DNA of 16,384 nucleotides from a virus (lineage: Duplodnaviria; Heunggongvirae; Uroviricota; Caudoviricetes): IMG/VR virus record IMGVR_UViG_2563367003_000001. One strand, written 5' to 3'. Shown in pieces: positions 1 to 13,758 of the stretch. Both the position numbers and the translations under genes were made by a program. Under the pieces are notes generated by a model, which did not search any database, was not told the DNA's origin, and saw nothing but the letters and a program-made list of their open reading frames with translations. How positions within the stretch are numbered: the stretch's first letter is position 1; each line of letters opens with the position of its first letter.

Positions 1-2160
<2,160 letters not shown>

Positions 2161-2236
2161 ACATGAGTCAATGGTGTAAGTATGTGAATGATATAAGAGG
2201 AAAAATAGAGCATAATCTCTACCTGAATGGCTATGT

Positions 2237-2272
2237 TGCAATACACACTGCAATACACACTGCAATACACAG
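2237..2272 (+). repeat. Three tandem 12-bp direct repeats TGCAATACACAC/G (candidate integrase arm-type sites or operator)
   Basis: TGCAATACACAC TGCAATACACAC TGCAATACACAG; related copies near the other end of the element (13310..13350). Confidence 0.8.
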
Positions 2273-2331
2273 AAATCAATGTACAAACCATTCAATTATC
2301 AACCCACAAATGAAGTGAATAAAGATTTGTT

Positions 2332-3093
2332 ATGAATATTATAGATACCCTTCAAAATGACCTAGAGCGCGCAGTAGCGCTTCAAAACATACTAATTGCA
2401 AGAGCTACAGGAGCCCAGGATGAAGCTAATAATGATTATTTGCTTCTAAGAACATATTTCTTACAAAATCCTCCTTTACATCAGCTATTACCAGAGTTTG
2501 TGAGAACTAATCGCTCACTAAAAGAATTTTGGGGATTTATAAAAAAGACTGAAAAGTATGCCCCCCGGAGAGATTTGATTTATAAGGCATTTCAGCCGAT
2601 GCTGGATTATCTAGAAGGGAAAAATAAAGCTCCAGCGGATGAAGACATATCTGATGTATTAAGAAAGTTTAACGAGGATGGAGTCCACGCCGTTTGGATA
2701 AAAGCACTTGAACGGCGCCATACAGATCCGGATGGTGCGATAACCTCCGCAAGAACACTTCTTGAAACAGTTTGCAAACACATTCTTGATGATATGGGCA
2801 TTCAGTATAATAATAAAAATATTGAAATGTCAGAGCTTTATAAAACTCTTTCAAAAGAACTTAACCTATCTGCCGACCAACATACTGAAAATATCTTCAA
2901 ACAAATTCTCGGCGGTTGTTCTGCAGTTGTAAATGGGTTAGGTACTCTTCGTAATAAACTCGGTGATGCACATGGAACGAACAGCTCATCAATTAAGCCA
3001 TCCCCAAGGCATGCCGAACTTGCAGTAAATTTATCAGGCTCAATGGCTCTTTTTTTAATTAACACTTGGTTAAACCTTAAAGATGGGAAATAA
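2332..3093 (+). CDS. HEPN-domain protein with Rx6H motif (Abi_C / abortive-infection-like), 253 aa
   Basis: C-terminal motif GTLRNKLGDAHG fits the HEPN R-x(4-6)-H signature seen in AbiJ/AbiU2/Abi_C proteins. AT-rich gene in the cargo position of the element. Family assignment from motif memory only. Confidence 0.6.
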   Translation: MNIIDTLQNDLERAVALQNILIARATGAQDEANNDYLLLRTYFLQNPPLHQLLPEFVRTNRSLKEFWGFIKKTEKYAPRRDLIYKAFQPMLDYLEGKNKAPADEDISDVLRKFNEDGVHAVWIKALERRHTDPDGAITSARTLLETVCKHILDDMGIQYNNKNIEMSELYKTLSKELNLSADQHTENIFKQILGGCSAVVNGLGTLRNKLGDAHGTNSSSIKPSPRHAELAVNLSGSMALFLINTWLNLKDGK

Positions 3094-3179
3094 CGTATAA
3101 TGAAGTAACACGAGCAATTAGTTAATCATTATACTCAGTCGATTAATTTATTTTGACGACTCGTAAGCAATTTTTCGAT

Positions 3180-3199
3180 GAGGGCGGAACTCCGCCCTC
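3180..3199. repeat. Perfect palindrome GAGGGCGGA-ac-TCCGCCCTC in a 360-bp non-coding spacer
   Basis: 9-bp arms, 2-nt spacer; no flanking U-tract on either strand, so not a canonical intrinsic terminator. Confidence 0.4.
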
Positions 3200-3495
3200 G
3201 GTGCTAACCTATGAGAAACGATATCTCTTCCACCGATACCATAATATTAGGTATCGCGAAGAAGCCCCAAAATCAGTGTGTTGCTTTTACTACCCAAACT
3301 ACCTGTAGTTTCATAGTTGAGTTGCAAATTTGCAATTCGACTACCAGCCACAAGGCGTAAATTTGCGTCGTCAGGAATATCAACGAGTTAGCATATGAAT
3401 AGGCCAAACGGCCACAAACCTCACTTTTGAGGCTTGCTCATTTATTAGCTGGCTATGGTAAGGCCCATTTTGGGGCCGTCGAGAAAATCAAAGAG

Positions 3496-3771
3496 TTATC
3501 GCCGCAGTCTGTCAGGCTTCTTCCACTGGTACGATGCAACGTTCTGGCGTTGTCCCTGCCTCCGCCTAGCTGCCAGTATAGCCAGCACTTTGGTGCGGAT
3601 GACTAAGCAATCCTGTCCGTTCAGTTCTATACCGTCACGCCACATAACCTCAGCAACCACACGAGCGTAATTTTCAGCGGTGACACTGCCCGGCTGCGTG
3701 GCCTGTTCGTCATGCTGGTGGCTGACTCCACCAGCATAGCAGATTACTTTCAGTAGTTCGGATTCAGTCAT
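3496..3771 (-). CDS. Hypothetical protein (91 aa), last gene of the packaging operon downstream of terS
   Basis: ORF 12 bp after the Nu1-like stop, same strand. No recognised similarity; an overlapping plus-strand ORF 3455..3670 is less protein-like. Confidence 0.4.
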   Translation of the reverse strand: MTESELLKVICYAGGVSHQHDEQATQPGSVTAENYARVVAEVMWRDGIELNGQDCLVIRTKVLAILAARRRQGQRQNVASYQWKKPDRLRR

Positions 3772-3782
3772 AGCGTACTACG

Positions 3783-4310
3783 TTACTTATCCTTATTCAG
3801 CTGCAACTTATCCGGTACGTTTCCTGTACTTTCCATCAGATAATCAGCCAGTATCTGTGGGAGGTTGTCAGCAACGCCGGCACTGGCATTACAGGCTTTA
3901 GCCACTTCCTTTTTAAGTCCATCCAGCATAGCCGGAGTCATCTGTGGGAAGCGCCTTTGCATGGTAAGCGGCAGGCTGTCCATGATAGATGAAATCTGAC
4001 TCGCCAGTTTGGAAAGAACATACATACAAAACTCTGTATCAATAACGTCGCCGCGTTCGCGCTCGTTTTTAAGCTCCTGCGCCTCTGCCTGTGCTGTCAG
4101 TAATCTGATCCTGACGCGTAAAAGTTCATCGTCATCAATATCGCCCGTTTCGTTTGTAATCTGGCTGATTGCATTGTTAACCCGATTATCTATTACACTG
4201 GCAACATCATAGAACGCCTCACGGCCCTTACGCTCGACGGGAATCACTCCCCACTTATCGAACGCAGTGGCGCTTACACGGCAACTTTTTGCCATGTTTT
4301 TTTTGTTCAT
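3783..4310 (-). CDS. Small terminase subunit, lambda Nu1-like (satellite-encoded TerS)
   Basis: Middle and C-terminal regions align with lambda Nu1 from memory (AQAEAQELKNERERGDVIDTEFCMYVLSKLASQISSIMDSLPLTMQRRFPQ versus AQADAQELKNARDSAEVVETAFCTFVLSRIAGEIASILDGLPLSVQRRFPE). Sits ~150 bp downstream of the cos-like site, as in lambda. Start chosen at MNKKNMAK; ORF track extends to 4334. Confidence 0.8.
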   Translation of the reverse strand: MNKKNMAKSCRVSATAFDKWGVIPVERKGREAFYDVASVIDNRVNNAISQITNETGDIDDDELLRVRIRLLTAQAEAQELKNERERGDVIDTEFCMYVLSKLASQISSIMDSLPLTMQRRFPQMTPAMLDGLKKEVAKACNASAGVADNLPQILADYLMESTGNVPDKLQLNKDK

Positions 4311-4399
4311 CAGGTGTAATTTCATTGATACCACAACTTAATTACTGTTTCAGGTTGGTGTATTGATTGTATTTTTCTCTTATTATTCATACAGATATA

Positions 4400-4500
4400 G
4401 CGAACAACAAAACCACCACCAGTCCCCTTAAAATGCTCATAAATAGAGAAAACCCGCGCGCCTGACGCCCCGTAGCCTGTCAGATCGCCGGAAAGGACCC
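4400..4500 (-). other. Lambda-like cos site (cosQ-side flank, cosN-equivalent at 4459..4470, start of cosB)
   Basis: Minus strand reads GGGTCCTTTCCGGCGATCTGACAGGCTACG GGGCGTCAGGCG CGCGGGTTTTCTCTATTTATGAGCATTTT. Recalled lambda sequence is ...GGGTCCTTTCCGGTGATCCGACAGGTTACG GGGCGGCGACCT CGCGGGTTTTCGCTATTTATGAAAATTTT. Flanks are near-identical; the central 12-mer differs at ~5 positions. Confidence 0.7.
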
Positions 4501-4526
4501 GCCAGCCAGAGCGGGCCCTAATTTCA

Positions 4527-4910
4527 TCAACCAATCAGCTTATAGCGACCATCCCGTGCATTGCGGCGTACACGCTCAATCTTGAGGCATAGCGCCGCAT
4601 CTGGCTTTTTTGGGACAGGTACGCGGCAATATTCAGAAGCGCGAGGAATATTATTTATCCAGTCGATCACTTCACTTAAATACCAGGCCTTACGCCCTTC
4701 CGTAACCTGCACACGCTCCGGGAACTCTCCACTAGCCTCAAGGTTTAGCAGTGTACGCCGACTCAGGGTTGTAATTTCCATCACCTGATTCATATCAACA
4801 AGGCGCTCGCTTAAACACATTTTGTCAGCGATAGCTTTTAATTCCTCTACAGCTGGATTCGGGTACATCATTTCGGCAATTGGCTTAAGGTCATTGTAAT
4901 CATTCTGCAT
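4527..4910 (-). CDS. AlpA/MerR-like HTH DNA-binding protein (127 aa), between the decoration gene and cos
   Basis: MEITTLSRRTLLNLEASGEFPERVQVTEGRKAWYLSEVIDWINN fits the AlpA-family HTH pattern. RBS GGGGGA 5 nt upstream of ATG at 4910. Function (regulator versus packaging factor) unknown. Confidence 0.6.
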   Translation of the reverse strand: MQNDYNDLKPIAEMMYPNPAVEELKAIADKMCLSERLVDMNQVMEITTLSRRTLLNLEASGEFPERVQVTEGRKAWYLSEVIDWINNIPRASEYCRVPVPKKPDAALCLKIERVRRNARDGRYKLIG

Positions 4911-4921
4911 TGTATCCCCCT

Positions 4922-5263
4922 TTACACACGAGCCAGCGGCTGAACAGAAATACCTGAGCCAACAAACGCGGCAACCTTTGCCGACAGTTCTCTTACAGAC
5001 TCAGGCCAGTTCAGAGCATCAACATTTAAAACACCTGTCTTATAAACCTGTGCCTGTGTTTTTTTCGCTGTGTCGATTTGTACAGCGGAAACATAAACCG
5101 CTTTGCCTGCGCTCGTTCCATCCCATACCACTAGCGCACCAGTTGCATCTTCCTGCATCAGTGGCGTAAACGCAGGTATTACCCCTTTATTGGCTGAAAA
5201 TATCCCCAGCGTAGTAACCAGTGCTTCAGTGCCAGACATGAGTTCAGTGTAATGAGTAGCCAT
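4922..5263 (-). CDS. Head decoration protein, lambda gpD-like (satellite-encoded)
   Basis: 113 aa; AFTPLMQEDATGALVVWDGTSAGKAVYVSAV...QVYKTGVLNVDALNWPES...AFVGSGISV parallels lambda gpD ([31 protein letters not shown]...[18 protein letters not shown]...[10 protein letters not shown]). Strong RBS AAGGGGGAG. Confidence 0.8.
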   Translation of the reverse strand: MATHYTELMSGTEALVTTLGIFSANKGVIPAFTPLMQEDATGALVVWDGTSAGKAVYVSAVQIDTAKKTQAQVYKTGVLNVDALNWPESVRELSAKVAAFVGSGISVQPLARV

Positions 5264-5272
5264 TGCTCCCCC

Positions 5273-6313
5273 TTAGCCAATGCGAACGGTAACAAAACGA
5301 TTGATGCGGGCCGGTATTGGCTGTGGTGCTGAATGTGTCTGCACATATTCAATAGCCGGATCACCAGGCACAATATAGTTTTTCGGTGCAAGTTCGGCTT
5401 TAGTCAGCCCCATTCGGATTAGCTCCGGATCCTGAATACCGCCATAGGCGACAATCCCCTGAAGAGCCGTATTGCCAAGCACCATCAAATCAGGATCAAG
5501 GAAATGTTTTTCAGTTCCGTCCTCGTCGGTATAACGCCCGCTGTATACAACAATCGCAACATCGCCCATATACCCTTTAAAACTCACCGAATCACCAAGG
5601 TCTTTAAGGGCCGTTTCCAGTTCGGAATTAGAACCACGACGGGTATCCAGAGCCTCTTTTATCGCTCTGAATGAACGGTATTTCTTCCATACATTACCGC
5701 CCATAATGATGATATTAGTGACGCCCTCACTAAATTCTGCGTAGCTCTCAATATCATCATTTGGATCAAAAGTTTCTTTATCCTTACCTGACCACTCAGC
5801 ACCGCCAGACTGAGTGATGATATTTTGTGGTTTAATATTCCAGTCCAGCTCATAACGTTCAATACCATCGCCCTCAATGATATTTTTCCCCGTTGTGATT
5901 GCCTGAACGGCAAGCCATTCAATACGTGCACGAATAGCTTTAGCCTGATTTACAATCGCCTGTTTAACTTTAATATTACGCGCTCCAAAAGCATTGTATT
6001 GCTCAGGTGATACACCAGCAGGGCGCACAGCTAACTTATTTGGATCAATGCTGCTTTTCGGCTTCATATAGCCTGGACGAATTGTTTTTGATTCGTACCC
6101 TTCGTCACGTGAAACTTTACTACCCACCATAGGAGAACAAAACGCTGCAATTGGGATATTTGGATCGTCGATTGTATCAAGAATAATATCGCGCGATTCA
6201 AACATTACCGAGCGAGTAAAAAACAAACTGGTAAACAACGCATTTAGTTGTTTTTGTACATCTACAGCATTAACCACCTGTACAAGCTGGGTAGGCGAAT
6301 ATAAATCAACCAT
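5273..6313 (-). CDS. Major capsid protein, lambda gpE-family homolog (divergent, satellite-encoded)
   Basis: Shares blocks with lambda gpE: ITQSGGAEWSGKDKETFDPNDDIESYA, RRGSNSELETALKDLG, GDVAIVVYSG, GYMKPK. Start set at MVDLYSPTQ (RBS AAGAGG); ORF track extends upstream to 6487. Confidence 0.85.
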   Translation of the reverse strand: MVDLYSPTQLVQVVNAVDVQKQLNALFTSLFFTRSVMFESRDIILDTIDDPNIPIAAFCSPMVGSKVSRDEGYESKTIRPGYMKPKSSIDPNKLAVRPAGVSPEQYNAFGARNIKVKQAIVNQAKAIRARIEWLAVQAITTGKNIIEGDGIERYELDWNIKPQNIITQSGGAEWSGKDKETFDPNDDIESYAEFSEGVTNIIIMGGNVWKKYRSFRAIKEALDTRRGSNSELETALKDLGDSVSFKGYMGDVAIVVYSGRYTDEDGTEKHFLDPDLMVLGNTALQGIVAYGGIQDPELIRMGLTKAELAPKNYIVPGDPAIEYVQTHSAPQPIPARINRFVTVRIG

Positions 6314-6487
6314 ACGCATCCTCTTTGCATTCATTAAAAATAATTGTGGATATATGCTATCACCGATATTTGTCATGCGAATACATGCAACCGAGTGCAA
6401 TGTTGTATAAAGTTTTGGGATGACAACTTCAGCACGGATAATTAGTGTTAATATCTTCACTCCCTTTGGTCTGGATTTATGTAGCAT

Positions 6488-6521
6488 GCCGGAAAATTTA
6501 TTTTTTTTCCGGCCTTTTTTA
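6488..6521 (+). terminator. GC-stem hairpin with T-tract (plus-strand orientation) between ssb and the capsid gene
   Basis: GCCGGAAAA-tttatttt-TTTTCCGGC followed by CTTTTTTA on the plus strand; on the minus strand the hairpin is not followed by a U-run. Confidence 0.4.
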
Positions 6522-6531
6522 TTGGCAATAT

Positions 6532-6981
6532 TTAAAACGGAATATCATCTCCCCATTGCTCATTATCTCCCACTGGTGGATGGCTTCCTTGCTGATCTGC
6601 CTGTTGTTTTGCTCTGTTCAGTGCGTCAGTAGCCTGACCCTGTTGATCTTTTTTGCCGCCCGGTCGCACCGTTCGCGCACTGATTACGCTGTCTGCGATA
6701 ACCTGCCAGCCCTGCCGCGTTTCACCGTTCTGTCCAGTCCACTGGCTCACCTGCATATTACCCGCCACGCTCAGGAGTTCGCCTTTGTGATGCTTTGCCA
6801 GCGTGTCGGCTTGTCTGCCAAACGCCAGCACAGATAACCACATCGTCGCCGTTCCGTCATCTGCCTGGCTGCATGGCAAAGATACCGCCATCCGTGCCAG
6901 TGTCATGGGTGTTCCCTTGCTGGTATGTTTTACCTGTGGGTCGTCCACCAGCCGCCCGTAAGCTGCTATTTGCGCCGTCAT
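6532..6981 (-). CDS. ssb: Single-stranded DNA-binding protein (SSB) with C-terminal acidic tip ...WGDDIPF
   Basis: 149 aa; OB-fold-like N-terminus (AYGRLVDDPQ...), Gln/Gly-rich linker, and the DDIPF tail characteristic of bacterial/phage SSBs (E. coli SSB ends DDDIPF). Confidence 0.8.
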   Translation of the reverse strand: MTAQIAAYGRLVDDPQVKHTSKGTPMTLARMAVSLPCSQADDGTATMWLSVLAFGRQADTLAKHHKGELLSVAGNMQVSQWTGQNGETRQGWQVIADSVISARTVRPGGKKDQQGQATDALNRAKQQADQQGSHPPVGDNEQWGDDIPF

Positions 6982-6992
6982 GCTGCCTGCTC

Positions 6993-7235
6993 TCAGGACT
7001 TAATATTGATGGTTGTCACTTCCTCCGCTTCGGCAATCTCCCGTTCGGTCAGCGTGGCAAAGTTTGCAGCCGCCGTTGTCATGAATGCGCTTATCAGTTC
7101 GGGATGTGCTTTCGCGTATCCTTCCCCGGCGTTGCGGTCTATTGCCTTAATCGCCACCCTTAGCCAGTGTTCAGCCATATCAAGGGCGCGGTAATGTGGC
7201 TTTATATGTTTGTTCAGTTTTCCTGATGTGTGCAT
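6993..7235 (-). CDS. Hypothetical protein (80 aa) immediately downstream of the iteron origin
   Basis: ORF with GAGGGGG RBS ~10 nt upstream; no recognised domain. Confidence 0.45.
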   Translation of the reverse strand: MHTSGKLNKHIKPHYRALDMAEHWLRVAIKAIDRNAGEGYAKAHPELISAFMTTAAANFATLTEREIAEAEEVTTINIKS

Positions 7236-7280
7236 TTTTATTTTTACCCCCTCGTTTAAAAAGTTTTTTGTGCACCACCA

Positions 7281-7510
7281 CCTTGTCTACCTTGTCTACC
7301 TGATTAGTTATCAGGCCAGTAATGGCGCGGGTTTCAGGGAGGTAGACAGCCCCAAATAGCTGTCTACCTCATCTCTACCCGTCTCCTTACCTGTCTACAA
7401 AAATGGGTAGATAAGGTAGATAACAGGTAGACAGTGAAAAATAGTTATCTACCTGCATTAATACATTGAAATAAAAGTATTTTATTTCAGTCAGGTAGAC
7501 AAGGTAGATA
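7281..7510. repeat. Replication origin: iteron array (>=11 copies of GGTAGAYA/TRTCTACC in both orientations) plus AT-rich segment
   Basis: CTTGTCTACCTTGTCTACC (7282..7300), GGTAGACAG (7341), TGTCTACC (7361), CTGTCTAC (7391), GGTAGATAAGGTAGATAACAGGTAGACAG (7407..7434), TATCTACC (7447), GGTAGACAAGGTAGATAAC (7493..7511); AT-rich 7457..7490. Lies directly 3' of the helicase gene. Confidence 0.8.
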
Positions 7511-7524
7511 ACCATTGCCATTTT

Positions 7525-9276
7525 TTATAAAAACGCATCGCAATCATCAGTAGTCGTTGCGTTGGTCTGCGTGACTCCCTTAACTTTTCGCGTAATATAT
7601 TCATATCCGTAAACTTTCGCCGCTGACCTCATAGCCTTTCCGAACTCATTCACGCTCAAACATTTCCCCTTTCCTGTATATGCCATGAAGGCCATATAGA
7701 CACGGTAAAGGCTGTTTCTGGTCGTGTACTTCACGGTGTCACCACCACCGCCCATCATTAGCCCACGAGCTTCCTCCAGAAACTCCAGCGCCGCGCAAAG
7801 CTCAACAACCGGATCCGTTTGCTGCTTTATTGCCAGAGCTTCATCACCGTCACGCTGTTCCAGTAATAAAGCCCGTGCCTTTTCAGGGTCAGCAAAATTA
7901 GCCAGCAAGCGGCGGATAATTACGGGGATTTCTGCCGCTATCTTTTCCGGTAATTCCTTGTCTTTTTCGTCCTCCCTTACAATGTTGTCGAACCGGAAAA
8001 TCACCCGACGGCGTGACACACCTCCGGCCCGTTCGGTAAAGATCATCGGGTCGTTATTGGTTGCCAGTACCACCGCCCTTATTATCGTCGTGAATCGCTT
8101 CTCATATTTCGGGTTAATTTCAACGGGATCGCCTCCCGTGATTTTCTTGATGCCCGTGCCTTCCCCCGTATATTTCGGCTGATCGGCAAGGACGATAAGA
8201 CGACTCCCGACAACCTGCGCACGCCCTCCTGCATCATCGAGTGATGTCATCTCTGCGCTTACGGTGTTCTGTTTGCCAGCAAGCAGGGTGGCAATATGGG
8301 TAAATGTACTCTTACCGCTTCCCCCGTCTCCGGTGGCCTCAATGAACATCTGCCAGTCGTACCGGTTCGCCATAATCATGTACAGCGCGGCACATATACG
8401 CATCATCTTGCGCGGGTCTTTTCCGGCTGCGTGCTCAAGCCATTTATGAAAGTTTGGCGCGTTATCGCGGATGTTCTCCCCTGGTGCTGGTGGCGTGTAC
8501 TCAATGCCGTTGTGCGTGGTGATCCAGTTCTCCGGCGTGTGCGGGGAAAATTCCCCCGTTTTCAGGTCAAGCGCACCATTGGCGAACGGCAGCAAATCGC
8601 CGGACGGCTCGCCCATTGGTTCGGCAATAACTTTTAACGCTTCAACGGCGTTATTGATCACGCGTTTGCTGAAAGTGGCCCTGTGCTCTGAATAGATCGC
8701 CACCATTTCGCGGCTCAGCTCCATTGTGCTGATCGGACACCATACCCCGCCGCGCCATACGTGAACGATTTCACTTTCCGGATGCACACAAACGCCATCA
8801 AAGCGCTCGGCAAGCAGCTGCGCGCGCTCACTGTCTGCCATCTGTGAAAGTTGCGCCTTTTGCTTCGTCGGAAGATTAAGCACCAGGCTTTCCCCACGCT
8901 CGCATTCCTCTTTGAGTCGCGGCAACTGGTCGGATAAATCCACTGGGCTGGTGTCAGTAATCCCCGCGTATTCGTGTACGGTCTTCACTCCAGCCACAGC
9001 CAGTAACGTAACAATCTGCGTCATGCTGTGCTCTGTGATATGTCCTGCGCGGTAAACACGCACACACTGACGATCTTCATCAATGATCCGGTAATCGGTG
9101 ATGTTTTTCAGTTGCTCATCAGCCAACACGACAGGCGGCACATCGTCGGCGGCAATATGTTTACCCGCCCATTCCTGCCACTCTTTCGCATGGCTCCACG
9201 CATCACTACCTGCAAAGATGATTATCTCTGTCAGTCTGTCGCGTGGCTGTTTTTTTAAGTTCGGTGCCAGTTTCAT
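7525..9276 (-). CDS. Replication initiator: SF3 helicase of the D5 / P4-alpha family (primase-helicase-like), 583 aa
   Basis: Walker A GDGGSGKST and surrounding D5_N/P4-alpha C-terminal-like sequence; followed by the iteron origin. The N-terminal ~250 aa may be a primase-like domain (not verified). Confidence 0.75.
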   Translation of the reverse strand: MKLAPNLKKQPRDRLTEIIIFAGSDAWSHAKEWQEWAGKHIAADDVPPVVLADEQLKNITDYRIIDEDRQCVRVYRAGHITEHSMTQIVTLLAVAGVKTVHEYAGITDTSPVDLSDQLPRLKEECERGESLVLNLPTKQKAQLSQMADSERAQLLAERFDGVCVHPESEIVHVWRGGVWCPISTMELSREMVAIYSEHRATFSKRVINNAVEALKVIAEPMGEPSGDLLPFANGALDLKTGEFSPHTPENWITTHNGIEYTPPAPGENIRDNAPNFHKWLEHAAGKDPRKMMRICAALYMIMANRYDWQMFIEATGDGGSGKSTFTHIATLLAGKQNTVSAEMTSLDDAGGRAQVVGSRLIVLADQPKYTGEGTGIKKITGGDPVEINPKYEKRFTTIIRAVVLATNNDPMIFTERAGGVSRRRVIFRFDNIVREDEKDKELPEKIAAEIPVIIRRLLANFADPEKARALLLEQRDGDEALAIKQQTDPVVELCAALEFLEEARGLMMGGGGDTVKYTTRNSLYRVYMAFMAYTGKGKCLSVNEFGKAMRSAAKVYGYEYITRKVKGVTQTNATTTDDCDAFL

Positions 9277-9572
9277 TTTTTGCCCCTGAATGCGTTAATC
9301 ATGCTTTTCATTTTCTGGATGTTTCCCCGCGCTTTTTCCCTGCTGATGGGCTTACTGCGGGGTGCGGCATATACCAGGGAAAAATCACGCCGGAACTGAT
9401 AAACAGGCATCACGCAGTCATAGCTATACCCCTCACGACGGTAAGTGATGCGCCGTTCTGCCACGCCTTTAATCGTTACCGTGCCGCCGTATTTATCGCG
9501 GTAAATATCGCCGTTCATAAATTCAGGCCGAGCGGGGCCGCTGGCAATAAAGCCAGAATTTTTCATTTCCAT
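9273..9572 (-). CDS. Hypothetical protein (99 aa), translationally coupled to the helicase gene (ATGA overlap)
   Basis: ORF in operon context; no recognised motif. Confidence 0.45.
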   Translation of the reverse strand: MEMKNSGFIASGPARPEFMNGDIYRDKYGGTVTIKGVAERRITYRREGYSYDCVMPVYQFRRDFSLVYAAPRSKPISREKARGNIQKMKSMINAFRGKK

Positions 9573-9589
9573 ATTATTTATTCCTCGAC

Positions 9590-9811
9590 TTAACTCGACT
9601 TATTTGATAGCAGGGCACTATTTATTGCGTCATTGAGTTTTTCTGCTGCTTCATCAATAAGTGACAACAGGCCATAAGCAATATTTGCATCTTCATTGTC
9701 ATTTATGCAATCAAGCCACATATTTAATATTGCTTTTGCTGAATTATTTAAAGTTAATGAACTTTCTGCACATGCTAACAATTTAAAAAAGACTTCCCGT
9801 TCTGTATTCAT
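9590..9811 (-). CDS. Hypothetical protein (73 aa), AT-rich
   Basis: ORF in operon context; composition differs from neighbours. Confidence 0.4.
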   Translation of the reverse strand: MNTEREVFFKLLACAESSLTLNNSAKAILNMWLDCINDNEDANIAYGLLSLIDEAAEKLNDAINSALLSNKSS

Positions 9812-10003
9812 TTAATCCCCCACCAGCTTACTTTCTTCCTCAATCAAAAAACTAGCGACACTTCCCGAAAGACGCGCCAGTAGGCTCGCCAGTGCGGATA
9901 TATCAGCATCTGTAATTTTGTTCGGGTATACCTCAAGAAGGCGGCAAATAATTTCTGTCTGGTGCGCACGTTCAGCGGCTTCGTGTAATGTGATTTCCTG
10001 CAT
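9812..10003 (-). CDS. Hypothetical protein (63 aa)
   Basis: ORF abutting the next gene with no spacer (stop/start coupling). Confidence 0.4.
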   Translation of the reverse strand: MQEITLHEAAERAHQTEIICRLLEVYPNKITDADISALASLLARLSGSVASFLIEEESKLVGD

Positions 10004-10188
10004 TAATGCACCTCTTTTAATTCATACACTGCTGAAATAATGACTTGTGATAAGCCATATTCTGATGATTCGCTTCTCACCGCAGCAATAGCCGTCTGAA
10101 CATTAACAGCCTTCACATTCTGAGCGATACCAATTGTGTGGCCTATTGGGTTAACAGCTCGGGCAAATACACGGAAGGTTTTAAGCAT
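10003..10188 (-). CDS. Hypothetical protein (61 aa)
   Basis: Start ATG overlaps the stop of the upstream 65-aa ORF (ATGCTTAA). Confidence 0.4.
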   Translation of the reverse strand: MLKTFRVFARAVNPIGHTIGIAQNVKAVNVQTAIAAVRSESSEYGLSQVIISAVYELKEVH

Positions 10189-10378
10189 GACTCACTCCCT
10201 GGCGGATTTTTGCAGCGAATACAGCAACACAACCGGACGGGCAACGGCTACGCGCTTCGCGTTCCGTCCAGGCGGTTACGTGGATGATTTGAGATTCTCC
10301 GGCACTCAGTGCCAGAAAACGCCACACAAAGGCCGTTTGTGTGTGTACAAGGTGTGGTATATGATTTACAGCAACCAT
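10181..10378 (-). CDS. Hypothetical protein (65 aa), first gene of the leftward operon
   Basis: Strong RBS AGGAGCCGTT-ATG. It is the 3' part of the 243-aa ORF 10181..10912 in the track; only the portion downstream of this RBS is considered real. Confidence 0.5.
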   Translation of the reverse strand: MVAVNHIPHLVHTQTAFVWRFLALSAGESQIIHVTAWTEREARSRCPSGCVAVFAAKIRQGVSHA

Positions 10379-10390
10379 AACGGCTCCTAG

Positions 10391-10568
10391 TTTACGTTGT
10401 TGGTTAGACGCCCCGTATGTGTTCCCAGCACTGCGGGGCGTTGCTCTTTGTATTTCAACAATTCTTTCGGTGTGTTTCATGTTATGAGCGCATGAAACAC
10501 ACGTCAAGGCTTTTTGTATTTCTTTTTTTGTGTATACTGAAACACACCGATGATTAGGAGTTTCAGAA
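10391..10568. promoter_or_regulatory. Divergent promoter/operator region between the leftward operon and the rightward RHH gene
   Basis: Inverted repeat GACGCCCCG...CGGGGCGT (10408..10440); palindrome TGTGTTTCATG...CATGAAACACA (10472..10500); second direct copy TGAAACACACC (10539..10549); -10-like TATACT (10531..10536); RBS AGGAG before ATG at 10569. Confidence 0.55.
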
Positions 10569-10874
10569 ATGGCAACGGCTAACAAAAACGCAAAATCACA
10601 ACTGACAACTGTCAGAGTCCCACTAGATGTTATGCAAGGGATGGAATCCGTTAAGCTGGACGGTGAAAGCAATGCCGGATTTATCGTAACCGCCATGCGC
10701 GGTGAAATCGCCCGCCGCCAGGCAGAAGGAAGCGGAGAAAATCCCCTCGTGTCTTCACTGGATGCCTTAGCTAAGGTCGAACAAATCGGCATCAAGGCAG
10801 CGGAGGAAATCGGGCAACTCGTAGCCGTCGCTCGTGAAGAACTCCAGCGGCGTAAAGCCAAAGAATCTGAATAA
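10569..10874 (+). CDS. Putative ribbon-helix-helix-type transcriptional regulator (101 aa)
   Basis: N-terminal beta-strand/helix pattern (TTVRVPLDVMQGMESVKLD...NAGFIVTAMRGEIARR) plus coiled C-terminus. AGGAG RBS. Divergent from the replication operon. Fold assignment is inference. Confidence 0.5.
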   Translation: MATANKNAKSQLTTVRVPLDVMQGMESVKLDGESNAGFIVTAMRGEIARRQAEGSGENPLVSSLDALAKVEQIGIKAAEEIGQLVAVAREELQRRKAKESE

Positions 10875-11224
10875 TTAGTATCAGCGCCGTGATGTGAGTA
10901 ACTACGGCGCATTGCTATGTAAATACTGGCAATAAACAGAAAAGGTAGTTCTACTCCGAATAATTTTATCTGACACTACTCCTGAACTAACATGCGCTTA
11001 TCTTACAGGATATAAATATAAATCCATAAAATCACGATTAAATAAAGTCGCTCCAAACATAAACCACACCCAACGCTTAACAAGATAGCAACAAACAGGT
11101 AAATAACTTGCAGAAATATTTATCGCAAGGATTATCATTATTAATGACAAATCACTTTACCAAGTCATTCCCCTCTCTTATCATAAAGAGAAAGTAATAA
11201 ATAAGTTAAGGGAGTTAGAATGCT

Positions 11225-11761
11225 ATGAATCTAAAAAAAATAGCCACAAACACAAAAAACAAGATAACAGAAACATTTAATAAACTTATATTAGAGGCAT
11301 CTAAAACCCCCACACAAGATGAAATTAAAATACTTGAGAGAAGGAGTAAGAAGTTTAATTACTCCTTTTTCTCATACGCAGTCACAGGAGCTATAATAGT
11401 TTTTTGCTCTCAACCATTAATTAAATACGCAAACCCAATACTTATTTTATTGAGTGGTCTGTTACTGTCTATCATCATTATCATTCTCAGAATGATTTAT
11501 ATTTCACAAGCGAATGCATCATGGACAACCAAAAAACGCTCACATGTACTAGTTCATTTTCTTTCTGCATGTTTCATAGCATCAACATTGACGTTGCTAT
11601 ATCAGGCTTACGATAATAACATCACACACAAATTGTACTGTAAAAATATACAACAACTTATTGAAAAAAGGATAGAAACAGAAAAAAACATCAGCATATT
11701 CAGTGGGATGCAATGCACCCCGGTATATGATTACTCTTTATTTGGATTTAATCTCTTATAA
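11225..11761 (+). CDS. Small membrane protein (178 aa, ~3 predicted TM helices), very AT-rich cargo gene
   Basis: Hydrophobic segments FFSYAVTGAIIVFCSQPLI, ILILLSGLLLSIIIIILRMIYI, VLVHFLSACFIASTLTLLY. Strongly AT-rich versus the flanks. No recognised family. Confidence 0.55.
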   Translation: MNLKKIATNTKNKITETFNKLILEASKTPTQDEIKILERRSKKFNYSFFSYAVTGAIIVFCSQPLIKYANPILILLSGLLLSIIIIILRMIYISQANASWTTKKRSHVLVHFLSACFIASTLTLLYQAYDNNITHKLYCKNIQQLIEKRIETEKNISIFSGMQCTPVYDYSLFGFNLL

Positions 11762-11770
11762 AGAATGTTA

Positions 11771-11804
11771 TTACTGATTTGAGTACAAATTCTCAAATCA
11801 GTAA
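11771..11804. terminator. Bidirectional intrinsic terminator hairpin between convergent genes
   Basis: 13-bp perfect stem TTACTGATTTGAG / CTCAAATCAGTAA with 8-nt loop, A/T-rich flanks on both sides; lies between the plus-strand membrane-protein gene and the minus-strand alpA gene. Confidence 0.65.
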
Positions 11805-11830
11805 TTCATAATATTTTATTCTGAGATAAT

Positions 11831-12058
11831 TTAAACTACCCACTCACCTCGAATCCATGCCTGCACTTCTGAAAGACGATATGCAACAGCAGTGGAACCA
11901 ATCTTGATCCGCTTAGGAAATTTTCCTTCCTTCTCCAGCTTCCAGCGTGTGCTGTTCGCAAGAGTGGTTAGCTCCCGACATTCTTTCTCACGGATCATTC
12001 GGTCAATGTTAGGAATGTACTCCAGACCCTTTTTATCAACAATTGCCATTTTTTTCAT
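11831..12058 (-). CDS. alpA: AlpA-family HTH protein (excisionase/Vis-like regulator), 75 aa
   Basis: IREKECRELTTLANSTRWKLEKEGKFPKRIKIGSTAVAYRLSEVQAWI fits the AlpA pattern; immediately downstream of the integrase gene. Confidence 0.8.
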   Translation of the reverse strand: MKKMAIVDKKGLEYIPNIDRMIREKECRELTTLANSTRWKLEKEGKFPKRIKIGSTAVAYRLSEVQAWIRGEWVV

Positions 12059-12059
12059 G

Positions 12060-13295
12060 TTAACCAGCCTTTTGTTTGAGGATTGTCACTTTTGAATCAG
12101 CACCTGCGATGCTATTGAGATATGTAGTCCAGAGTTCCAGAGCATCCAGTTTTTTAGCCATAAACTTACTCCGGTTGTAAACACCTGCCACGCCAGGTAG
12201 CGCATGGCCTAACAGTTGTTCTACTACATAAAATTCAACACCGAGATCACTTAGATGAGTAGATAGCGTTCTTCTAAGGTCGTGTAGTGACCATTGTTTT
12301 TCATGGCCCAAACGTTTACCGATTTTCCCCCCAATCTTGCTTACGCTTTCTCTAATTCGCAGACTTCCCAGCACATAACCAGTATGTTTTGTCTCTTCGT
12401 GAACATCCGTTACCCACTGTCGTAGAATTTCAGGTACTGGTCTGACGATTTCAACACCAGTTTTTGAGTGATCTTTTGGTACAGTCCAAACCCAACTTTC
12501 GAGATCCCATTCGCTCCATTCTGATAATCGGGCTTCACTCATTCGACATCCAAATACTGTACAAAGCACAAACATTTTTCGCGTGTATTCAGACATTAGT
12601 TTTAAATCAGGCTCGACAAAAATTGCCTTCCAGAGCTGGCCGAGTTCGGCTTCATCCAGAACCCGATCCCGCTTACCTGCAATCTGCCCCACATCACTCA
12701 TGCGCAAATCCTTTAAAGCATCACACGTCGCGTACTGGCGTACCCGACAAAAACGAAGAGCTAATTTAGTGTCAGAAAAAACATACGCCGCCATAACTGG
12801 TGCATTACGTTTAATTCGGTCAAAACAGTCCAGCCATTCATATAGGTGAGTGTCATTTACGGGCAAATGACCGATATAGGGAAAGATATGCTTTCGAAAT
12901 CTGCCAAGCGTTACAGCATGAGTTTTACGACGCACCTTACAGTAATTTTCATACCAGTAATTTAGTGCATCCTCCACTGTAACCGGCTTTAAGCGTTCTT
13001 CAGCCTGAATCTTAATCTGGATACGCGGATCACGTTTGTCAGCCAACCAACCACGGCACTCGTCGCGCTTTTCCCTTGCCTGTTTGAGTGACATATCAGG
13101 ATATTTACCCAACGTTAGCCAGACCGGAGCAGCCCGGCCACCTGCTAACCTGTAGAAGAAAACAAAGCTCACAGCCCCTTTAGTACTCACACGAATAGAA
13201 AGCCCCTTTCCATCAGCAATGGTGATCTGCTTTTCTCTGGGTTTCCCCAGATATCCTTTAAGCGCTTTGTCGCTCAGTTTGTTCTCGCCAGCCAT
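12060..13295 (-). CDS. int: Tyrosine site-specific integrase, P4-type
   Basis: N-terminal arm-binding-like region (LSDKALKGYLGKPREKQITIADGKGLSIRVSTKGAVSFVFFYR), catalytic-box residues (HDLRRT, LLGHA...GVYNRS). Start set at MAGENKLSDK; ORF track extends to a GTG at 13346. Confidence 0.9.
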   Translation of the reverse strand: MAGENKLSDKALKGYLGKPREKQITIADGKGLSIRVSTKGAVSFVFFYRLAGGRAAPVWLTLGKYPDMSLKQAREKRDECRGWLADKRDPRIQIKIQAEERLKPVTVEDALNYWYENYCKVRRKTHAVTLGRFRKHIFPYIGHLPVNDTHLYEWLDCFDRIKRNAPVMAAYVFSDTKLALRFCRVRQYATCDALKDLRMSDVGQIAGKRDRVLDEAELGQLWKAIFVEPDLKLMSEYTRKMFVLCTVFGCRMSEARLSEWSEWDLESWVWTVPKDHSKTGVEIVRPVPEILRQWVTDVHEETKHTGYVLGSLRIRESVSKIGGKIGKRLGHEKQWSLHDLRRTLSTHLSDLGVEFYVVEQLLGHALPGVAGVYNRSKFMAKKLDALELWTTYLNSIAGADSKVTILKQKAG

Positions 13296-13309
13296 TTTTA
13301 GCCCCAAAA

Positions 13310-13350
13310 AGCAATACAAGCTGCAATACAGAGATGATTGCAACACACAG
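13310..13350 (+). repeat. Direct repeats related to TGCAATACA (AGCAATACA, TGCAATACA, TGCAACACA) upstream of int
   Basis: Same motif and orientation as the 3x12-bp array at 2237..2272 at the opposite end of the element. Confidence 0.7.
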
Positions 13351-13457
13351 ATAACGAGGAAAATTCAGTGAAAGCACCAGATAAACTTATTCTTTATTAT
13401 CAAAAGATTAAGTGTAAAAACCAGCAACTACACGAAAGCCTCAGAAAGCCATGCTAA

Positions 13458-13703
13458 GTGCTTCGGCTTGACATATCCCGGCGTAAATTCAGAGGTGGAG
13501 CCGCCACGGGAGCGGATAACCTCACCGGAAACAATCGGCGAAACGTACAGCGCCATGTTTACCAGCCCCGGAATTTGTGAGAGATAGACTTTCTCCGTGG
13601 TGAAGGGATAGCTCTCACGGAAAAAGAGACGCAGAAACAGCGGATCAAACTTAAATTTCTGCTCATTTGCCGCCAGCAGCTGGGCGGTTGTGTACATCGA
13701 CAT
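13458..13703 (-). pseudogene. E: Lambda-like major capsid protein E, N-terminal fragment (residues 1 to ~91), interrupted by the inserted element
   Basis: MSMYTTAQLLAANEQKFKFDPLFLRLFFRESYPFTTEKVYLSQIPGLVNMALYVSPIVSGEVIRSRGGSTSEFTPGYVKPKH matches the lambda gpE N-terminus; the frame then reads 9 unrelated codons (LAWLSEAFV) into the element and stops at 13428. Confidence 0.9.
13459..13468. repeat. Right junction core (attR-like): TGCTTCGGCT
   Basis: Identical to 2151..2160; lambda E sequence continues on the high-coordinate side. Confidence 0.7.
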
Positions 13704-13758
13704 AAAAAAATCCCGTAAAAAAAGCCGCACAGGCGGCCTTTAGTGATGAAGGGTAAGG

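Follow-up and report, generated by a model that had tools for sequence, protein, structure and literature searches.

Satellites of lambda-like phages carry virulence and defence genes among the enterobacteria, and for the cos-type islands of Escherichia coli the only packaging strategy worked out so far is that of Rpp, a protein that borrows the small terminase subunit (TerS) of the helper phage. Rpp proteins are shorter, lack the C-terminus that binds the large terminase subunit (TerL) and must pair with the helper's TerS (PMC6739421, PMC9026076). Here we analyse a 16,384-nucleotide stretch of DNA (IMG/VR record IMGVR_UViG_2563367003_000001, hereafter the window), which contains a phage-inducible chromosomal island (PICI) in gene E of a lambdoid prophage. 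The island is a helper-embedded PICI of the 11capE type, and our subject is its packaging region (positions 3783-4500), in which a lambda-like cos site is followed by a terS gene of the Nu1 family. We consider it fairly probable that window 4327-4500 is the cos site at which the satellite's TerS would bind R-like repeats and recruit the helper's TerL, with cutting at a variant cosN and termination at cosQ. The window would thus represent a second, widespread strategy in the same genomic slot, one that combines a complete Nu1-type TerS with a lambda-style R3/R2/R1 array of its own and predicts independence from the helper's TerS.

An element of this kind is not unprecedented. The published description of 11capE (PMC10111431) places it in prophage 50icd of E. 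coli NRG857c, with the same arrangement, integrase target, size, gene order and att-core size as the satellite in the window and in co-orientation with the late genes of its helper; it describes the element as lacking terS and counts 201 instances of helper-embedded PICIs at the capsid E site. 11capE and the window have identical left cos flanks and the same 12-mer, GGGCGTCAGGCG, and the helper of 11capE has the lambda 12-mer. The two satellites differ downstream, where 11capE has a phage-type cosB (R3, R2, R1) and a 64-aa Nu1 remnant, whereas the one in the window has a cosB of its own and a TerS of full length. The latter combination is found in the IHE3034 PICI of E. coli. A 2018 study that did not analyse cos lists it as one of two E. 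coli islands that encode a TerS (PMC6092414). The IHE3034 island has the window's order of E-like gene, D-like gene, cos and terS, and its cosB, of the same type, contains an R3-like block of (GGT)n and two copies of GTTGGTGTATT inverted relative to each other. Unlike the satellite in the window, it has the lambda 12-mer, adjoins chromosomal genes (clpS on the side fetched) rather than lying in a prophage gene, and has no interrupted capsid gene downstream.

The cos1/RppA locus of EcCICFT073 resembles the window in having a lambda-like cosQ and cosN, an unrelated cosB and a gene for a DNA-binding protein directly after cos, and it shares the logic of re-aiming the helper's TerL at a satellite cos (PMC6739421, PMC9026076). 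The gene after rppA (L149, 3374-3655) has a product that, by eye, resembles the 91-aa protein of the window from the N-terminus onwards; rppA and terS both lie between cos and this gene and therefore occupy the same slot. TerS and the CFT073 RppA have no detectable similarity by BLASTP (E=6.4), and the gene after cos in the window encodes a full-length Nu1 homologue, which sets it apart from Rpp-type cos PICIs. These are without R2- or R1-like copies, according to a review (PMC9026076); the cosB of the window, unlike theirs, has such copies. The proposed R3-PICI core of EcCICFT073, ACCACCACC (bp 55-63; L149, 2529-2660), is the reverse complement of GGTGGTGGT in the window (bp 51-59), so that the motif lies 4 bp away and in the opposite orientation; its role in Rpp binding is a proposed one. 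More distantly, Staphylococcus aureus pathogenicity islands (SaPIs) also pair their own TerS with helper TerL to select satellite DNA, as summarised in PMC6092414. They rely on headful pac packaging and an unrelated TerS family, whereas the element in the window has a Nu1-family TerS and would be packaged by cos cutting.

The cos site, the satellite TerS and its candidate binding sites

The cos site lies on the minus strand (window 4500..4429) and consists of GGGTCCTTTCCGGCGATCTGACAGGCTACG, the 12-mer GGGCGTCAGGCG and CGCGGGTTTTCTCTATTTATGAGCATTTTA, in that order (Table 1). An earlier note on this DNA had reported flanks nearly identical to those of lambda around an altered 12-mer. Both statements hold when deposited lambdoid phages (2H10, IdasGreatGrand) serve as alignment references: 28 of the left 30 nt and 26 of the 30 at bp 13-42 match, with 0 indels, and the lambda 12-mer is GGGCGGCGACCT in the deposited phage records. 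The two 12-mers differ at five positions, bp 6, 8, 9, 10 and 12, and agree at bp 1-5, 7 and 11. The context ACG/GGGCG......./CGCGGG, in which slashes bound the 12-mer, aligns with lambdoid sites free of gaps, and it is from this alignment that we placed the nicks. The CG pairs at the nicks and bp 1-5 are invariant in all satellite and phage sites collected, and the cosQ heptamer is unchanged in all those aligned; its distance upstream from the left nick, 30 nt, is that of lambda. A BLAST search against 2.3 Gb of phage DNA gave E-values of 2e-15 to 3e-19, with all matches at cos, upstream of Nu1, and the resemblance is therefore not due to chance.

Past bp ~45 the window is unrelated to lambda cosB, which agrees with the divergence on the cosB side described in the earlier note. 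The spacer between cosN and the R3-equivalent block, as long as that of lambda, lies before this point for most of its length, and in lambda the distance from cosN to R3 is critical (PMC9026076). One base in this spacer, at window 4447 (cos bp 24), is a T in the window, in L134 and in NRG857c, and a G in most family members (CGCGGGTTTTCTCTATTT versus ...TTCGCTATTT).

The gene that follows cos encodes a Nu1-like TerS, as had been recognised from the sequence, with 87.5 bits to Pfam Phage_Nu1 (PF07471; cut-off 30) and E=9e-52 to PHROG 57. By BLASTP its residues 1-161 align with residues 3-180 of lambda-type Nu1 at 35% identity. The likeness is lowest in the N-terminal DNA-binding region, where the Pfam match leaves 33 profile positions of Phage_Nu1 unmatched, and highest from residue ~66 to the C-terminus, where the alignment takes in the C-terminal 40 residues and an (I/L)PxxLxxY(I/L) stretch at the Nu1 end. 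In lambda TerS, the last ~40 residues have been proposed as the domain that binds TerL (PMC9026076). A PDB sequence search with the satellite TerS gave no match at E<=1, and RppC was not matched.

The module is widely distributed. The top-scoring match to the window, the satellite of TUM1886, is 98.2% identical over the packaging module, and the TerS of the window is 100% identical to the WP_000766228.1-type TerS of TUM1886, C 237-04 and STEC711 and 90.5% identical to that of the IHE3034 PICI. Intact terS genes occur in many clusters (77-99% identity) and in other genera (60%), always in the order E-D-alpA-cos-terS, and the same TerS and 12-mer are found in satellites within prophages that have different flanking genes. 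The satellite-type cosB is present in ~55 complete E. coli genomes, a rough count taken from BLAST identity bands, which partial alignments confound. Identical modules in different prophages and in ~55 genomes fit a module that is maintained and mobile.

Conservation across satellites also brought out the R-like motifs, which a generic repeat finder missed. The R3- and R2-equivalent blocks are invariant among satellites whose TerS proteins are 82-100% identical, and the AT-rich spacer between them drifts; at the R3-equivalent position, the Enterobacter/Citrobacter satellites (TerS 60% identical) have GGTGGTGGTGTTGTT. The R2-equivalent core is inverted relative to the R3-equivalent core. Just ahead of terS, the IHE3034 PICI has a third copy, GTTGGTGTATT, an exact 11-nt inverted copy of that island's own R2-equivalent; its counterpart in the window, the possible R1-equivalent, is degenerate (7/11). 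Lambda R3 occupies bp 50-65, and R2 is opposite in orientation to R3 and R1 (PMC9026076); the core of lambda R3 lies at bp 53-59 and that of R2, GGAAACG, at bp 114-120, the latter read directly off lambda-type sequences. The satellite blocks are thus in lambda register, though their sequence is unrelated to that of the lambda R sites. The variable spacer lies where lambda has its site for integration host factor (IHF), and a scan with the IHF consensus found no site within the satellite cosB, so that an equivalent of I1 is not established. We propose that the R3-equivalent block is a putative binding site of the satellite TerS. Position and conservation together suggest that the satellite cosB repeats the R3-spacer-R2-R1 layout of lambda with another recognition sequence, which would match a TerS whose recognition region differs from that of Nu1. 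Conserved R3/R2/R1-like repeats in lambda register appear to be undescribed in satellite cosB.

Cohesive-end alleles in satellites, helpers and phages

The helper's own cos lies outside the window, and six genomes with the same nested arrangement were examined instead. In five of the six pairs (TUM1886, C 237-04, STEC711, Res13-Lact-PEB20-37-A and NRG857c), a small sample that was picked by searching for the variant and is uncorrected for shared ancestry, GGGCGTCAGGCG belongs to the satellite and GGGCGGCGACCT to the prophage around it; the pair in FDAARGOS_1296 has the lambda 12-mer at both sites. The suggestion in the earlier note that satellite and helper ends would be non-complementary thus holds for the closest relatives, and in the relatives examined the satellite ends would be unable to anneal to lambda-type helper ends. 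The satellite would still circularise despite the changed 12-mer, because both of its ends are cut from copies of the same cos. Whatever the downstream module, GGGCGTCAGGCG follows the satellite-type left flank: in the window and TUM1886 the satellite's own cosB and TerS come after it, in Res13-Lact-PEB20-37-A a chimeric TerS behind a phage-type cosB, and in NRG857c the 64-aa Nu1 remnant, again behind a phage-type cosB. The chimeric TerS (L144, 20220-20771) is nearly the same as the Nu1 of its enclosing prophage over its first ~100 residues, and its C-terminal ~80 residues are divergent and nearer to the TerS of the window than to Nu1.

This recurrent mismatch between the 12-mers of satellite and helper, which includes the published model NRG857c, appears to be undescribed. 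The passage of the 11capE paper that holds all the mentions of "cos" found there cites 258 bp at 90% identity between two cos regions and, as far as that passage extends, does not mention the cohesive-end difference (PMC10111431). Perhaps the mismatch is adaptive, or it could be simple linkage, and the distribution of the alleles bears on both possibilities.

An exact scan of IMG/VR for GGGCGTCAGGCG with its immediate flanks returned 16 contigs, 12 with the alpA-side left flank of satellites and four with an ordinary phage left flank and a lambda-type cosB (L125, L128, L135 and L139; Nu1 and TerL are visible in L125, L135 and L139). In the IMG/VR scans only ~3 of ~117 lambda-12-mer sites have the satellite left flank. 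The allele is not specific to the satellite, as it also occurs at cos sites of ordinary lambdoid prophages. When bp 6-12 were left free in a generic scan, 117 of 123 sites had the lambda 12-mer. A third allele, GGGCGGAAGGCG, is carried by phages, including the records YDC107_1 and PhiR46_1 as well as L023 and L088, and by one satellite (L065); the TerL that goes with it shares 98% identity with the TerL of lambda-12-mer phages. No deposited phage in INPHARED has GGGCGTCAGGCG, the best matches being YDC107_1 and PhiR46_1 with GGGCGGAAGGCG, and no relevant paper on either allele was found among those searchable. Among 5,426 complete E. coli genomes, GGGCGTCAGGCG is present in ~130, by the same rough count as above. 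The satellite family itself has at least three alleles: lambda's (FDAARGOS_1296, IHE3034, Enterobacter/Citrobacter), GGGCGGAAGGCG (L065) and GGGCGTCAGGCG (many). Several ~46-kb E. coli replicons listed as plasmids score YDC107_1-like identity, and they may carry GGGCGGAAGGCG too.

It is tempting to speculate that a different 12-mer insulates the satellite from its helper, which would make it the first cohesive-end compatibility barrier between the two. With two co-oriented cos sites ~15 kb apart, unlike ends would block the annealing of satellite to helper DNA and the circularisation of chimeras. The combination of GGGCGTCAGGCG satellite and GGGCGGCGACCT prophage in five of six nested pairs spans three downstream module types, and the satellite left flank is much more frequent among GGGCGTCAGGCG contigs than among lambda-12-mer sites. 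Moreover, a 2-bp mismatch between ends cuts viable yield about fourfold (PMC4669245), so that five mismatches should block annealing. However, satellites of the same family have the lambda 12-mer, including that of FDAARGOS_1296, which is nested in a lambda-12-mer prophage, and those of IHE3034 and Enterobacter/Citrobacter, and GGGCGTCAGGCG also stands at ordinary prophage cos sites. In so small, selected and related a sample the left flank and the 12-mer may simply be co-inherited, and blocking chimeric chromosomes brings the satellite no clear fitness gain. We therefore regard an adaptive, insulating role as unlikely.

Variation in cosN's right half is itself well documented. Differences at bp 7-12 are common in lambda-like phages, such as N15 (positions 9 and 12) and Gifsy-1 (8, 9 and 11), many mutations of this half show only a minimal phenotype, and lambda TerL nicks such variants efficiently; selection acts on cosQ, which is strongly conserved, on the flanking CG pairs and on the left half of cosN (PMC4669245). 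By itself TerL shows little sequence specificity; TerS bound at R3 places it (PMC9026076). Like the window, N15, phiD326 and Gifsy-1 keep the left half of the 12-mer, cosQ and the CG flanks, and their ends are 12-nt 5' extensions, as predicted for the window; their two or three changes are concentrated in bp 7-12, whereas the window has five, including position 6 (PMC4669245). Four of these five fall in bp 7-12, and as a natural allele GGGCGTCAGGCG would be mostly ordinary, within the documented and tolerated range of cosN variation.

Alternatively, cutting of the variant cosN might call for a specialised terminase that matches it, and lambdoid phages of the GGGCGTCAGGCG minority, not the enclosing lambda-12-mer prophage, would then be the true helpers. 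Such phages exist (L125, L128, L135, L139), the C 237-04 genome has a second site with the GGGCGTCAGGCG core elsewhere, and position 6 lies in the selected half of cosN. Against this, the TerL of L135 agrees with the nearest TerL from a lambda-12-mer phage at all but 3 of 641 residues (~99.5% identity), and only one of the three, G269 in place of the S of the others, is private to it; the Nu1 proteins of GGGCGTCAGGCG phages differ from those of the nearest lambda-12-mer phage at 0-1 residues. For changes in the right half, lambda TerL reportedly shows no cosN specificity (PMC4669245). We rejected co-variation of TerL with the 12-mer on the present data, and a dedicated terminase seems to us very unlikely.

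A proposed route to packaging

On the anatomy, family membership, conservation and allele distribution described above, packaging redirection by the satellite TerS and the helper TerL is plausible, and we infer that it would run as follows. The excised satellite would replicate into concatemers by means of its own primase and origin. The divergent N-terminal winged-helix domain of TerS would bind the R3/R2(/R1)-like repeats of the satellite, and its Nu1-like C-terminal region would recruit the gpA-type TerL of the helper prophage, which would nick at the CG-flanked positions despite the altered bp 6-12. The intact cosQ would be used for termination. An ordinary lambda-type TerL would thus cut GGGCGTCAGGCG, and the packaged satellite DNA would then circularise normally. 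Four copies of ~11.3 kb (~45 kb) would fill a lambda-sized head, by analogy with the concatemers reported for EcCICFT073. With its Nu1-like C-terminus, the satellite TerS should work without the helper's TerS.

Several points weigh against this proposal. The C-terminus of TerS is only moderately like that of Nu1, and binding of TerL is not assured. Position 6, the only change outside bp 7-12, falls in the half of cosN that is under selection, and the TerL comparison for GGGCGTCAGGCG comprises one full-length and two partial phage proteins. For every TerS-type E. coli PICI packaging is at present a prediction, and the IHE3034 PICI, which has the same type of cosB and TerS, gave <=40 transductants/ml after mitomycin (PMC6092414). 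Finally, an IS3-family element in gene FI of the enclosing prophage means that this particular helper may be defective.

Some of these points would also be expected if the cos/terS module were an inactive relic of captured phage DNA, in an element that no longer moves by packaging. Transfer of the TerS-type PICIs of IHE3034 and 18098 was poor (PMC6092414), virions of the NRG857c composite were not detected (PMC10111431), the prophage in the window is interrupted by an insertion sequence, and the NRG857c satellite keeps only a 64-aa remnant of Nu1. Three findings speak against a relic: many clusters (77-99% identity) and other genera (60%) keep an intact terS in a constant gene order, cosQ, nick flanks and R-like blocks stay invariant while the spacers drift, and identical satellites sit in different prophages. 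We consider a relic quite unlikely and favour packaging by the satellite's TerS together with the helper's TerL.

The feature belongs to known kinds, namely a lambda-like cos, a Nu1-family TerS, an 11capE-type PICI and an IHE3034-type packaging module. The novelty that the earlier note had implied is reduced accordingly: the 12-mer is also present in ordinary prophages, the satellites have at least three alleles, tolerated variation at bp 7-12 is published (PMC4669245), and the TerS/cosB module and the nested satellite were already in the literature (PMC6092414, PMC10111431). Modestly new are the specific allele and its preferential association with satellites, its mismatch with the prophage, the R-array, and the swapping of cosB and TerS behind a constant left flank. 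These findings extend, and do not overturn, current understanding. The naturally swapped modules will be useful for studying how TerS positions TerL at cosN, and the difference between satellite and helper sticky ends is open to existing lambda genetics.

The satellite and its host prophage

Coordinates of the satellite and its packaging features are given in Table 1.

Table 1. Features of the satellite, its packaging region and the interrupted prophage gene, in window coordinates (bp, cos numbering)
Feature	Position	Strand	Remarks
cosQ heptamer GGGTCCT	4494..4500	-	30 nt upstream of left nick; 23 bases, then the 12-mer
cosN	4457..4472	-	12-mer GGGCGTCAGGCG at 4459-4470, plus CG dinucleotides flanking both nick positions
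cosN-R3 spacer, bp 13-48	4423..4458	-	lambda-like to ~bp 42; length as in lambda
R3-equivalent block CTGGTGGTGGTTTTGTTGTTCGCT, bp 49-72	4399..4422	-	core GGTGGTGGT at bp 51-59 (4412-4420)
R2-equivalent block CAATACACCAACCTGAAACA, bp 106-125	4346..4365	-	core ACACCAACC at bp 110-118
Possible R1-equivalent GTTGTGGTATC, bp 134-144	4327..4337	-	R3-equivalent orientation; degenerate, 7/11; weak
terS, Nu1 family	3783..4310	-	175 aa from homology-based ATG; RefSeq-style start at 4325 gives 180 aa
alpA-type regulator	4527..4910	-	Pfam Phage_AlpA 7.6e-9; phrog_2790 1e-49
Conserved 91-aa gene, phrog_1561	3496..3771	-	downstream of terS
Tyrosine integrase	12060-13346		Pfam/PHROG
Whole satellite	2161..13458	-	~11.3 kb; bounded by 10-bp att cores; Pfam/PHROG gene calls
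att core AGCCGAAGCA, 10-bp direct repeat	13459-13468 and 2151-2160		at both junctions, inside prophage gene E
Prophage gene E fragment	13428-13730		profile positions 1-78 of lambdoid major capsid E
Prophage gene E fragment	1370-2146		profile positions 94-328 of lambdoid major capsid E

The satellite reads int, alpA-like, primase, SSB, E-like, D-like, alpA, cos, terS, the 91-aa gene and Abi_C cargo, and in Pfam and PHROG scans of the open reading frames (ORFs) every satellite gene except the cargo is on the minus strand. The primase is of the D5 type, two regulators are of the AlpA type, and the E-like capsid protein is 45% identical to phage E. One alpA gene lies directly upstream of cos, and its 3' flank is the satellite-type left flank referred to above. 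The ORFs between the att cores that were submitted to Pfam and PHROG belonged to other classes or had no known one, with none for TerL, portal or tail. A tblastn search of the window with lambda-type TerL likewise gave no match, which bears out the statement of the earlier note that the element has no TerL. The D, protease and portal genes of the prophage lie upstream of its split gene E. A query across the junction from integrase to capsid fragment was covered to at least 80% in 170 complete E. coli genomes.

No Pfam family was found for the 91-aa protein, and a PDB sequence search with it returned only insignificant matches to ankyrin repeats. Its gene was considered as an rpp and rejected, on the PDB search and on comparison with the EcCICFT073 locus. 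Between this gene and attR is an Abi_C (abortive infection) gene (window 2332-3093, plus strand). The cargo in the same slot elsewhere consists of HEPN and DUF262 genes (NRG857c), DUF2971 (L144), or FRG and DUF3892 (Enterobacter/Citrobacter), and the slot looks like a hotspot for defence genes.

On the prophage side, an ORF for an IS3-family transposase (9-1055, minus strand) lies within window 1-1262, and similarity to the closest relative ends ~67 nt into FI; the enclosing prophage is probably defective for head completion through this IS3-family insertion in gene FI. The primase region (7188-10582) has no nucleotide alignment with the closest relative, TUM1886, while both of its flanks are ~97-98% identical, and the replication module of the satellite appears to be mosaic. 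The E-like ORF (5273-6487, minus strand) is 404 aa long when called mechanically; RefSeq relatives annotate 346 aa with a start near 6313, and its first 58 codons are probably untranslated.

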